From positions 1 to 45,542 of IMG/VR virus record IMGVR_UViG_2671181054_000005: DNA of 45,542 nucleotides, one strand, 5' to 3'. Shown piece after piece: positions 31,374 to 35,313 of this stretch. The translations under genes and the position numbers were made by a program. Under the pieces are notes generated by a model. It did not search any database and had not been told where the DNA came from. It saw only the letters and a program-made list of their open reading frames with translations. Numbering within the stretch: the first letter of the stretch is position 1; each line of letters opens with the position of its first letter. The DNA comes from a virus (Duplodnaviria > Heunggongvirae > Uroviricota > Caudoviricetes).

Positions 31374-32042
31374 ATGACCGCTTTAACCGATATTGGCGAA
31401 CTCTCTATCAGCGACAGCCGCGCAGGCGGTAAAGACTACCTGCTCAGGCCCTCATTCGAGGCTATGACGAGGATCGGCGCTCCAGAGGAGATTGTGCAGG
31501 CGTATGCCACCATCCACGGCAAAGACGTCGCACAGCTGGTTGAGGTGTGCGCTGGCATGCTGGGGCGCTTTCCTGAATGGCTATCACCTTCATTCAACCG
31601 TGCAGCCGAGAAGCTGTTATCGACGTGCATGCTTGTGCTACAGGCGTGCTGTGAGGACGACCTGACGCCAATGATCGGCGAATGGAAAGGATGGCGGCAT
31701 TGTGTCGTCTACCGCCCGGGCCAGATGCCTAAGAACGACATTATCGTACTGGCGCAGCACCTCATGCAGCACGGCATCGTCGGAAAGGCAAAGGTTCGCC
31801 AGTTGCAGCGCCACGAGACTGGCGAGCGCACTACGGAGTTCAAAGCCTTCGACTACATCAGCGCAGCACGTAGTCACTTTGGAATGAACCGCGCCGAAGC
31901 CTCTCAGTTAACGATGACCGAATTTCAGATGCTGCTGGCGGCGAAATACCCCGATCAGAAAGGTTTCACTCGCGATGAGTATGACAGCATCGCCGACGAA
32001 TACCTGGCTAAACAGGCTGCACGTAGAAAGAAAGCCCAATAA
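31374..32042 (+). CDS. Tail assembly chaperone (putative)
   Basis: 222 aa, ATG with GGAAGG Shine-Dalgarno; lies between major tail and tape measure genes; no frameshift extension identified. Confidence 0.45.
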   Translation: MTALTDIGELSISDSRAGGKDYLLRPSFEAMTRIGAPEEIVQAYATIHGKDVAQLVEVCAGMLGRFPEWLSPSFNRAAEKLLSTCMLVLQACCEDDLTPMIGEWKGWRHCVVYRPGQMPKNDIIVLAQHLMQHGIVGKAKVRQLQRHETGERTTEFKAFDYISAARSHFGMNRAEASQLTMTEFQMLLAAKYPDQKGFTRDEYDSIADEYLAKQAARRKKAQ

Positions 32043-32055
32043 ATTGGGCTCTATT

Positions 32056-32268
32056 TTAGAAAACCAACGTCAAATGCTCTCTACCAATCCGGGCTAAATC
32101 ACTGACGTTCATTGGTACTCGGCCCCTAACGTCGATTTTAATGTGACCACCGGCATTAGCTACGGTTCTTATTAAGTCAGAAATATTCATTGGAATTGCA
32201 CAATCGGCAGTAATTTCTATATGAACTCCAGTTCTGGCTATATCACTAATATTCATTGGTAACGGCAT
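32056..32268 (-). CDS. Small repeat-containing protein encoded antisense within the tail module
   Basis: 70 aa, ATG at 32268 with GGAGGA Shine-Dalgarno; three in-frame peptide repeats PMN(I/V)SD(I/L)xR; AT-rich. Confidence 0.4.
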   Translation of the reverse strand: MPLPMNISDIARTGVHIEITADCAIPMNISDLIRTVANAGGHIKIDVRGRVPMNVSDLARIGREHLTLVF

Positions 32269-32382
32269 AAATCCTCCATTGTTTTAAAAACAGCAATCAT
32301 TTCAGCACGTTCATTACTTTTCTATTGTGATGAGCCTTAAGATTCAGCGAAATACCATCGTCAGTACTATTTGGAGAATGAC

Positions 32383-35313
32383 ATGGCTGGTGAGAAGAAC
32401 GCCGGTAGCATCGTTTATGAAATCAGCGCTGACGTTGAGCCGCTGCTGCAGGGCGGGAAGCAGGCCATTGATGCTCTGGATAAATTGGATGCGGCAGCTC
32501 AGCAGTCCGGCAAGGGAATGGATAACCTCGATCAAAGCACGTCTCAAACCGGATCCGCGTTTACTGAACTGGCTGGTTATGCCAACTCGATGGATAACCA
32601 ACTGCGCAAGCTTAACACCAATGTGAGCGGGATCGCCCGCGCAATGGAAGAGGCCCGCAGCGGGACCGGTGGCGCCAACAGTGAGTTCAATCGCGCTGAA
32701 TCCATCATCGAGGCGCTGGGTAACCAACTCGCTGTGCTGGACGAAGCACAGGAGAATGGCGCTCGCAGTGCTGCCGTTCTGGCTGCCCAGTTGCGCGCCG
32801 GGTCAAAAGCGACCGATGAAGAGAAGCAGAAGATCGGCGAATTGACCGGCCGACTGTATGACATGAAAACAGGCGTGGAAACCGGAGCGAAAGGAACTGG
32901 AGCCTGGAAAAACAGCATGCAACAGGCTGGGTACCAGGTTCAGGACTTTATCATTCAGGTTCAGGGCGGCCAGTCCGCGCTGGTAGCGTTTGCACAGCAG
33001 GGCTCTCAACTTGCCGGTGCATTCGGGCCGGGTGGTGCGGTAATTGGTTCTGTTATCGCACTGAGTTCTGTCCTGGCCGGTGTGCTCATCACTTCTCTGA
33101 ATGGCGGCAAGAACGCCATGGATGCGCTGAAAGACGCAGCCGAGGCGATGGACAAGGTCATTACCATTTCCCAAAATGGCGTGGCCGCTCTGTCTGATAA
33201 ATACGCATTGCTCGCGAAAACGAATACCGAAGTAGCAACGCTGATGCGTAACCAGGCACTGCTGGAATACAACGAGGCTATCAACAAGATACCGAAGGCG
33301 ATTAGCGATGCTTCGAGCTCGTTACTTTCCTTCGGCGATAAGGCACTTTCTGCATTTTCCGGTGGTTATGCGTCAGTCGATGGCTTTAACGATCGTCTGG
33401 CTACTCTTGAAATCACCACGGATAACTATTCCGAGGCGATGAAGCAGGCATACGGTGCCGGGCAGGCATTCCAGGCGACCGCAAACAGCATTGGCAACAC
33501 CGTCGGAGCCGTTGCCGACAAGTTCGGGATATCAGAGCAGAAAGCCTTCGAGTTCAGCAAGCAACTTTCCGATATTGCCAAAAACCCAACACCGGAAGCC
33601 CTGCAGCGACTTGCTACTGAACTGCAGAACACTCAGAGCTCAACCGAGAAAGGGCAGACTGCGCTCACGGCATTTGTTGGGAAACTGGTTGAGTTATCAC
33701 GTGAAGCCGTCATTGCTAAAGGTAATGTTGCTGCTCTGAAGCAGGAAACGGATAACCTTACCGCCGGGCAGAAGAACCTTATCAAGCAGTCAGAGCGTAA
33801 CCTTGCGCTGTCAAAACTGCAGGGTGAGGCTCGCGCCCGACTTCAGGCGCAATATGCCGCTGAAGATGCGGGGTTTGCAAAAGATGATCCGCACGCCAAA
33901 CAAATGGAAAATGACGCTGCCGCTACGTACAAAAATACGCAGGCGCAGAAGACACTTCAGTCCGAGCAGAAGAAAGGTGCTTCCCAGGCTGATTCTATTG
34001 CTCAGAAACTGGCGAACCTGAAACAGCAATCAGAGCTCGCTGCCGACTCAACAAGCAAGCTGAGCCGGGAACAAGCGATCCTGAATGCTCAGCAGTCACT
34101 TGGTAAAGGCGCAACGAAGGAGCAGATCGCGCTGGCTGGGCAGTACGCCGCAACAAAATGGGACACTGCTAACGCCATTAAAGCGCAAGCGGCAGCTGAG
34201 AAGCTTCTCCCTGAGGCGCGTGAGAATGCCAGTTACAAGCAGGATGTAGAGGATCTGAACACCGCTCTGGCTGCGAAGAAAATCAGTCAGGAGCAGTTCA
34301 ATCAGACTTCCGAGCGACTGGAGGCAACTCACCAGGCAAACCTCGCCAAAATCCGCGCCCAGCAGGCTGTGACGCCACAGCAGGATGCAGTCGGTGGAGT
34401 TGACCCTGTTCAGCAACTTGCTAACGAGAACGCTCGCAAGCTAGCGCTCATTCAGGCATTCGAACAGCAGGGGCTTATCACTCACCAGAATGCGCTCATG
34501 CTGCGCGCTACAGCTGACAAGGAGTATGAGCAGGCTCGCATCGCTGCCCAATGGGAGATCTTCCGCAATCAGAGCGCAGGTAATGAAGCACTGGCGGCGT
34601 CCTTCGATGCACTGGCCGGTAATGCGTCCAACGCCTTAACCGGCATCATTACCGGGAGCATGTCAGCGTCTGATGCCCTGCGCTCGATCGGGAATACCGT
34701 ACTGAACAGCCTCATCAACACCTTCGTTCAGATGGGCGTTGAGTGGGTGAAGTCAGCCATCATGGGGCAGACGGCCACCACTGCTGCAGTTGCAGCATCG
34801 ACCACTGCTCAGGCGGCAGGCATTGCCACTACCACGGCGACGTCTACCGCGGCGGCGGCGGCTACGACAGCGGCCTGGACTCCGGCAGCCATTATGTCAT
34901 CCATCGCCTCATTCGGTGGTGCGGTGGCGATCGGCATCGGAGCTATGGCTGGCATCCTGGCGCTGTCTGGCAAGCGAAAGAACGGCGGGCCCGTTTCGGC
35001 TGGCGGAATGTACCAGGTCGGCGAAGGCGGGATGCCTGAGATTTACCAGGCCAGCACCGGAAAGCAGTACATGATACCGGGCGACAACGGTCGAGTGATC
35101 AGCAATAAGGACATGGCTTCAGGAGGTGGTGGCGGGGTGGTAATCAACATCCAGAACTACACGTCATCCTCGGTCGATGCGCAAGCTGGCACGGATGCCA
35201 ATGGGGGCGTGACCGTCGATGTCATCGTCGCTGACCTGAATAATGGCGGGCCGATTAGCAGCGGTATAACCAGCAACTTCAATGTCAAACGCAAGCCAAG
35301 GGGGCAGGGCTGA
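32383..35313 (+). CDS. Tail tape measure protein
   Basis: Track start is TTG 32371; ATG at 32383 with GGAGA Shine-Dalgarno; ~976 aa Ala/Gln-rich protein with hydrophobic Gly/Ala-rich segment near C-terminus. Confidence 0.85.
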   Translation: MAGEKNAGSIVYEISADVEPLLQGGKQAIDALDKLDAAAQQSGKGMDNLDQSTSQTGSAFTELAGYANSMDNQLRKLNTNVSGIARAMEEARSGTGGANSEFNRAESIIEALGNQLAVLDEAQENGARSAAVLAAQLRAGSKATDEEKQKIGELTGRLYDMKTGVETGAKGTGAWKNSMQQAGYQVQDFIIQVQGGQSALVAFAQQGSQLAGAFGPGGAVIGSVIALSSVLAGVLITSLNGGKNAMDALKDAAEAMDKVITISQNGVAALSDKYALLAKTNTEVATLMRNQALLEYNEAINKIPKAISDASSSLLSFGDKALSAFSGGYASVDGFNDRLATLEITTDNYSEAMKQAYGAGQAFQATANSIGNTVGAVADKFGISEQKAFEFSKQLSDIAKNPTPEALQRLATELQNTQSSTEKGQTALTAFVGKLVELSREAVIAKGNVAALKQETDNLTAGQKNLIKQSERNLALSKLQGEARARLQAQYAAEDAGFAKDDPHAKQMENDAAATYKNTQAQKTLQSEQKKGASQADSIAQKLANLKQQSELAADSTSKLSREQAILNAQQSLGKGATKEQIALAGQYAATKWDTANAIKAQAAAEKLLPEARENASYKQDVEDLNTALAAKKISQEQFNQTSERLEATHQANLAKIRAQQAVTPQQDAVGGVDPVQQLANENARKLALIQAFEQQGLITHQNALMLRATADKEYEQARIAAQWEIFRNQSAGNEALAASFDALAGNASNALTGIITGSMSASDALRSIGNTVLNSLINTFVQMGVEWVKSAIMGQTATTAAVAASTTAQAAGIATTTATSTAAAAATTAAWTPAAIMSSIASFGGAVAIGIGAMAGILALSGKRKNGGPVSAGGMYQVGEGGMPEIYQASTGKQYMIPGDNGRVISNKDMASGGGGGVVINIQNYTSSSVDAQAGTDANGGVTVDVIVADLNNGGPISSGITSNFNVKRKPRGQG

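Follow-up and report, generated by a model that had tools for sequence, protein, structure and literature searches.

What fills the AT-rich interval between a gene in tail assembly chaperone position and the tape measure protein (TMP) gene of this phage, and do the three direct repeats inside it work as DNA or as coding sequence? A first-pass annotation, made from the letters alone, had seen a reverse-oriented open reading frame (ORF) of 70 codons running through the repeats, and had allowed that the repeats might instead be an array of protein-binding sites. Both readings are weighed here over the window, by which we mean the whole stretch of 45,542 nucleotides, together with related prophages and the homologues of the encoded protein.

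An insert between two tail genes

The window is that of a temperate siphophage, with a CI-type repressor, RecT, a tailspike with a GDSL domain and an umuDC-like pair, and its tail module resembles those of Enterobacter phage CobraSix and Hafnia phage Pocitis76. The tail genes run in the order tail terminator, Ig-domain tail tube, 222-aa DUF6246 protein and 976-aa TMP. The 346 bp around the insert are 100% identical to the chromosome of E. coli strain 20A24 (NZ_CP147044.1), and the insert region is rare in the species (1 of 5426 complete E. coli genomes). The features of the locus are these, with the strand given where one applies:

31374-32042, plus strand: DUF6246 gene, the left flank (Pfam PF19759, E 3e-72), between the tail tube gene and the TMP gene, in tail assembly chaperone position
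32033-32050: hairpin AGCCCAAT/ATTGGGCT, spanning the DUF6246 stop codon, with T-rich tails on both strands and a plus-strand match in a terminator scan
32036-32371: low-GC insert (moron cassette), placed by alignment with CobraSix, Pocitis76 and the Enterobacter prophages L024 and L027, and by the drop in GC
32056-32268, minus strand: gene for the 70-aa three-repeat protein, from the ORF listing (RefSeq WP_001514209.1, 'hypothetical protein'; phrog_23044)
32099-32117, plus strand: DNA repeat copy 1, antisense of peptide repeat 3 (PMNVSD)
32177-32195, plus strand: DNA repeat copy 2, antisense of peptide repeat 2 (PMNISD)
32243-32261, plus strand: DNA repeat copy 3, antisense of peptide repeat 1 (PMNISD)
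32272-32277, minus strand: Shine-Dalgarno sequence GGAGGA, read from the sequence, 3 nt before the ATG (GGAGGA-TTT-ATG)
32280-32292: 13-bp AT-rich palindrome TGTTTT-A-AAAACA, read from the sequence, directly upstream of the reverse gene's Shine-Dalgarno sequence
32296-32324, minus strand: weak candidate sigma-70 promoter (TAGAAA, 17-nt spacer, TG-n-AATGAT; 8 of 12 matches in a relaxed manual scan)
32383-35313, plus strand: TMP gene, the right flank (RefSeq; 976 aa from ATG 32383)

The AT-rich gap of about 330 bp is as it was first described, with coordinates off by at most one base. From the DUF6246 stop at 32042 to the start of TMP it measures 328-340 bp, depending on whether the alternative TTG at 32371 or the RefSeq ATG at 32383 is taken, and its GC content is 0.33-0.43 against 0.53-0.62 in the flanking genes. 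In CobraSix, Pocitis76, L024 and L027 the two genes lie 12-15 bp apart, and in the alignment with these relatives the TMP ribosome-binding and start region GGAGAATGACATGGC, common to them and the window, resumes directly after the insert.

The hairpin at the chaperone stop, earlier called bidirectional-looking, bears out that description at 32033-32050, with T-rich tails on both strands. Its stem is GC-rich and 7-8 bp long; the minus-strand fold comes to -14.5 kcal/mol (z -2.2) and is followed by TTCTTTCT, and from these sequence features it is likely to be an intrinsic terminator for the reverse gene. At the other end of that gene, a standard consensus scan returned no sigma-70 promoter upstream of the 70-aa ORF, the weak candidate listed above being the product of the relaxed scan; the 13-bp palindrome could be an operator or a chance outcome of AT-richness. 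An Rfam scan of the region gave nothing above threshold, and the window holds no tRNA genes.

A further question concerns the chaperone itself, for which the expected frameshifted extension had been reported missing and a search for a slippery site at the 3' end suggested. That search gave no site leading to an extension: the sole in-frame X_XXY_YYZ heptamer in the DUF6246 gene is CCCGGGC at 31715-31721, where a -1 shift meets a stop after 5 codons and would yield a product of ~119 aa. The heptamer is common to only 2 of 43 homologues (L036 and L047) and is therefore probably not meaningful, and no slippery heptamer is positionally conserved among the 43 DUF6246 genes. An extension spanning the insert was considered and set aside as impossible: no plus-strand frame stays open across it, and each is closed repeatedly, the -1 frame by stops at 31976, 31982, 32009, 32024, 32057 and beyond, the +1 frame at 32095, 32173 and beyond. 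The pairing of a slippery heptamer with an overlapping -1 ORF that defines G/GT-type chaperones is not found here. In the relatives TMP starts 12 bp past the DUF6246 stop, which leaves no room for an extension; with no room there and no conserved heptamer, the missing G/GT-type extension is a trait of the DUF6246 family as a whole, unrelated to the insert. The observation of its absence was thus correct, yet it does not reflect an effect of the insert. Many Enterobacterales prophages have a DUF6246 gene at the place of the tail assembly chaperone gene (the window and loci L023-L070); we found no relative of DUF6246 with a solved structure in the PDB and no relevant paper on it in the literature.

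Three repeats at the level of DNA and of protein

The three direct repeats, now placed at 32099, 32177 and 32243, have the 78- and 66-bp spacings first attributed to them. Taken as DNA they are striking: the 19-mer with up to 3 mismatches finds 2 matches in the window against 0.02 expected by chance, and 3 of the 4 copies of the 8-mer TTCATTGG in 45.5 kb fall inside 152 bp at the insert. Three 19-bp copies far beyond chance, in AT-rich DNA that looks intergenic, are what one might expect of an iteron or operator array bound by a protein, with the ORF incidental. Their spacing speaks against this, since both intervals are in frame with the 70-aa ORF, a minus-strand reading frame at 32056-32268 whose GGAGGA and three copies of PMN(I/V)SD(I/L)xR are present as the first-pass annotation gave them. 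The protein reads MPL-PMNISDIARTG..., PMNISDLIRTV..., PMNVSDLARIG..., so that its repeats are PMNISDIAR, PMNISDLIR and PMNVSDLAR.

The codons are more telling. Already inside the E. coli gene the repeats use different codons for Ser (AGT, TCT, AGT) and for Arg (AGA, AGA, CGG), which argues against such an array. In five homologues the residues of the units are kept while synonymous codon positions differ; of the 11 residues compared between units 1 and 3 of the V. cholerae homologue, 10 agree, 7 of these with different codons. Homologues 23-54% identical to the E. coli protein keep the length of the ORF and its amino-acid repeats through such codon change, and the family turns up in unrelated genomic contexts. 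Iterons would be conserved as DNA irrespective of frame, and that pattern is not seen. Because the homologues keep the repeat residues while synonymous positions differ, we consider an array of DNA sites extremely improbable; the alternative that the first reading had held in reserve is accordingly rejected. As the codons indicate, the three DNA repeats are the coding trace of three peptide repeats.

Close variants of the locus lead to a similar view. In two natural variants the ORF is 92.5% and 96.7% identical to that of the window, against 82-85% and 89-93% for the DUF6246 and TMP sequences on either side; synonymous and nonsynonymous changes in the ORF stand at 9:7 in the 92.5% variant and 5:2 in the 96.7% variant. 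The comparison of relatives that had been proposed as a check on the reading frame thus gives an ORF more conserved than its flanks, an excess of synonymous change and homologues that keep the frame, a pattern that indicates purifying selection on the 70-aa protein. The protein family, the conservation of the ORF with its synonymous excess and the insert-free relatives together support the earlier suggestion of a genuine reverse coding gene on an AT-rich insert.

In the 90% variant (P0001, encoded at L005 5994-6206), none of the three PMN motifs retains its Met, which has become V, L and T, and the remainder of each motif is kept; three equivalent positions change together.

Searches of protein databases with the repeat protein, also proposed at the outset, were productive in one respect and empty in another. 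They returned a family of homologues and an unassigned phage protein group, phrog_23044 (PHROGs v4, where no function is assigned; E 6.2e-52, residues 1-70 against profile positions 1-70 of 70). Profile searches put the family at ~40 clusters of 66-75 aa, 23-54% identical to the 70-aa protein, and a phmmer scan of 1.8 billion representatives gave 13 proteins of 66-73 aa at 31-54% identity. The sources include Serratia, Vibrio, Photobacterium, Burkholderia and Herbaspirillum, and all members are labelled hypothetical. Their alignment has few gaps, with G14 and T67 invariant and A11, H42 and G62 nearly so, and in all members the layout (L)PxTLExLARIG-x-(H/N)(I/V)x(I) recurs three times. A third, broader profile search added no relative that was longer or annotated; the long repeat proteins P0002, P0004, P0014 and P0016 were set aside as apparent low-complexity repeat matches.

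The known-domain collections gave no match. Pfam, NCBIfam and PADLOC scans of the 70-aa protein and of family members found nothing, including PADLOC-DB v2 for the 70-aa protein or the Herbaspirillum homologue at E<=0.01; a sequence-profile search of the PDB gave chance matches only (E>=0.18), and fold searches with the 70-aa protein gave only generic alpha/beta fragments. By tblastn the best match to the protein in 50,697 phage records had E=2, and plasmid records held nothing significant.

What the protein may look like is suggested by its repeats and by an AF2 model (pLDDT 77) with a (helix-strand)x3 layout. It consists of three units of 22-26 residues, each predicted to form a short helix and then a beta-strand starting with His or Asn, and as modelled these units resemble a mini-solenoid. 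Read from the sequence, it has no signal peptide, lipobox or membrane segment; lacking a signal peptide and membrane segment, it is probably cytoplasmic. The family shares with LRR- and FNIP-like solenoids units of 22-26 residues, here LPxTLExLxxIGxx(H/N)(I/V)T(I), with a beta-strand and a helix in each, and a His or Asn stands at the equivalent position of each strand. It is unlike them in having three units only and no capping motifs, and none of 15 family members matches an LRR or FNIP Pfam model at E<=1. This is a resemblance, not membership.

Evidence for a selected protein also bears on the possibility that the insert acts in cis, with antisense transcription or the hairpin tuning read-through from DUF6246 into TMP and the peptide secondary. 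A terminator-like hairpin with a plus-strand T-run does lie exactly between the two tail genes, and convergent transcription would collide at the insert. Purifying selection on the protein points the other way, as does the presence of the family outside tail operons; and where the insert is missing DUF6246 and TMP abut, so that the relatives need no such control. We regard an effect in cis as very unlikely, and return to the reading in which the insert serves to carry a protein gene.

The junction as a cargo site

Is such an insert exceptional at this position? A survey of the DUF6246-TMP junction in 48 species-representative genomes encoding DUF6246 indicates otherwise for the site, and confirms the rarity of the particular element, which is found in 0 of the 48 loci. 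The two genes are 1-38 bp apart in 16 loci, and insert-free close relatives comprise CobraSix, Pocitis76 and at least 14 Enterobacterales prophages, so the suggested comparison with related prophages did find the insert absent from them. At least 13 other prophages have 420-2500 bp of unrelated, lower-GC cargo at the same junction (L025, L032, L033, L035, L038, L042, L046, L048, L049, L051, L053, L054 and L056), mostly forward-oriented genes for predicted lipoproteins or membrane proteins. Enterobacter phage ENT1 has a different reverse ORF, of 98 aa, at exactly this junction (L002 2185-2481, minus strand), with no match in PHROG, NCBIfam or PADLOC. The DUF6246-TMP junction is a cargo hot spot.

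Separately, a reverse 97-aa ORF at the junction in L048 has, by eye, the look of an Arc-type ribbon-helix-helix protein.

A reverse-oriented gene inside a tail operon had been called unusual. The orientation is confirmed; the word overstates the case, for the junction is a hot spot and the position is that of HK97 gene 15 (PMC3594210). The moron that encodes HK97 gp15 stands between the chaperone and tape measure genes of the tail; its protein is made from the prophage and confers exclusion of phages (PMC3594210). Gene 15 and the insert in the window are alike in being absent from close relatives, deviant in composition and small in product (PMC3594210). Their proteins differ: gp15 is YebO-like and sits in the inner membrane, with a transmembrane helix at its N-terminus, whereas the 70-aa protein lacks any hydrophobic segment and has an alpha/beta make-up of three repeats.

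Measured against the Juhala/Hendrix definition of a moron, the insert separates genes that are adjacent in relatives (340 bp here, 1-38 bp there), differs in composition from its surroundings, as does other cargo in the same slot, and has, at consensus level, a terminator of its own in the predicted hairpin at 32033-32050. For a promoter of its own, which the definition also names, the scans gave the weak 8-of-12 candidate at 32296-32324 and nothing closer to consensus. We are highly confident of this anatomical reading, in which the insert is a moron carrying a real reverse-oriented gene. What is known here is a moron at a textbook site; what is uncharacterised is its small-protein family.

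That family has other homes. Homologues 40-42% identical to the 70-aa protein lie in reverse orientation in the DUF6246-TMP slot of Serratia liquefaciens and a second Serratia species, there within larger cargo islands, and the 54% identical homologue lies in reverse between gpK-like (JAB/NlpC) and gpI-like genes of a lambda-like tail module; in all, reverse homologues inside a tail operon occur in three other prophage lineages. Filamentous (Zot) prophages of Vibrio cholerae carry a member at their end, V. alginolyticus has one beside an integrase, and others belong to a P22-like element or, in Burkholderia, adjoin DUF6338 near a resolvase. In Herbaspirillum (L019 3890-8239) the homologue lies next to a prophage and stands between a TIR protein (PADLOC PDC-S66, bSEFIR-like) and a 260-aa protein with a membrane anchor; ThsB_TIR and SLATT genes follow directly downstream, and further on comes a prophage portal gene. 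The trio of TIR, 72-aa and 260-aa genes is found again in L020. No conserved partner emerged: genes of ~250 aa lie downstream of the homologues in Herbaspirillum, V. cholerae and V. alginolyticus, but show no homology among themselves. In the E. coli insert the 70-aa gene is the sole cargo and therefore works as a stand-alone unit. From these sequence contexts the family is read as mobile cargo, often reversed within tail operons.

As anatomy the finding is ordinary: in widespread temperate siphophages of Enterobacterales, the DUF6246-TMP junction is the equivalent of the HK97 gene 15 site. It does pick out a compact, uncharacterised family with no Pfam or NCBIfam entry, which recurs as reverse cargo in the tail operons of unrelated phages and in other mobile elements, and which makes a cheap, well-defined candidate for a phage-panel screen.

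Possible roles of the reverse gene

Small morons of this type have repeatedly proved to be exclusion, assembly-blocking or counter-defence factors. The cassette in the window, probably acquired horizontally, consists of one minus-strand gene with a strong ribosome-binding site and a terminator-like hairpin, and reads as a self-contained unit. As the gene opposes late transcription, it is probably transcribed on its own in the lysogen, and converging late transcription may damp it during lytic growth, as with phi80 taiEcA (PMC11364771). The protein would bind another protein, to the prophage's advantage in conflict between phages or between phage and host, our leading guess being exclusion of superinfecting phages or interference with their assembly.

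Two characterised systems besides HK97 gp15 inform this proposal. Pseudomonas phage JBD26 encodes Tab (tail assembly blocker), a moron product of 83 residues that acts against the TMP of incoming phages and is expressed constitutively from the prophage (PMC10884400). Tab and the 70-aa protein are both small moron products (83 and 70 residues) of the late operon without similarity to known domains. The tab gene lies between terminase genes with a cognate anti-Tab, in contrast to the 70-aa gene, which has no partner gene, and tblastn against phage records detected no sequence relationship between the proteins. In phi80, the gene for TaiEcA is divergent and interrupts the late operon, and its expression is lowered by Q-driven late transcription (PMC11364771). 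This Tai/Ati arrangement, termed a 'noncontiguous operon', is like the window in that a gene opposing the late genes interrupts the late operon. TaiEcA is by contrast a 26-kDa protein paired with a counter-defence gene, atiEcA, and usually sits upstream of the packaging module; we saw no homology between it and the 70-aa protein and no candidate Ati at the window locus.

How far do these likenesses carry? Independent expression of the reverse gene in the lysogen is probable from its orientation. A conflict-related function for the protein comes somewhat short of an even chance, the functional part of the explanation drawing only on analogy and context. Taken whole, as a moron cassette in a CobraSix-like siphophage, expressed independently in the lysogen and serving in phage-phage or phage-host conflict, the explanation seems to us fairly likely. 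A more specific version is tentative and on balance improbable: the family would be an unrecognised one of effectors in inter-phage conflict, stand-alone mini-solenoid binders encoded backwards within late or tail operons, made in the lysogen, silenced by late transcription, and able to keep superinfecting phages from assembling their tails or getting their DNA in. On that view, a tail component that is itself trimeric, for example the tape measure protein, might be the counterpart of the three near-equivalent units.

It is also conceivable, if doubtful, that the protein is a counter-defence (anti-immune) factor, used against host defences in infection or induction and not for protection of the lysogen. 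A small, probably cytoplasmic protein that is built of repeats and, on its predicted structure, binder-like would suit such a role; many kinds of mobile element carry the gene; and in Herbaspirillum the member has a TIR-domain protein as its neighbour, with ThsB_TIR and SLATT genes close by. The gene is placed against the late operon and outside the early region, however, and would be poorly timed for infection; it has no similarity to known anti-defence proteins, and the defence genes that neighbour the family differ between contexts.

Another unlikely reading, to which we give slightly less credence still, would make it a lysogenic-conversion factor that alters host physiology or fitness, with no part in phage conflict. 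Most other cargo in the slot consists of lipoproteins and membrane proteins typical of host-directed morons, and the same prophage has a reverse acyltransferase gene of O-antigen type. Yet without signal peptide, lipobox or membrane segment the protein is not envelope-directed like the other cargo, and no host pathway gene co-occurs with the family. Counter-defence and host-directed conversion are thus the chief competitors; the conflict-related role is the one we carry forward.

Some further observations concern the rest of the prophage and a relative. The Acyl_transf_3 acyltransferase gene (window 41801-42886, minus strand) adjoins the tailspike with its GDSL lipase/esterase domain (39182-41764, plus strand), and its sequence suggests another moron, one for conversion by O-antigen acetylation, with a deacetylating tailspike as its partner. 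At the prophage end, a umuD-like gene (Peptidase_S24, 128 aa) and a umuC-like gene (IMS family, 422 aa) form a pair (window 43224-44878, plus strand), so that the prophage carries translesion polymerase genes. In the metagenomic relative with the 90% variant (L005 5145-5876 and 1934-4966; also L006), homology to the TMP of the window ends after ~44 codons, and the ORF continues as a domain like the C-terminal part of type I restriction HsdR (PADLOC REase_I, E 3e-58). UvrD-like helicase genes come next, and this relative has a broken DUF6246 gene. The locus has the look of a prophage that decayed or recombined and became joined to a defence-like region.
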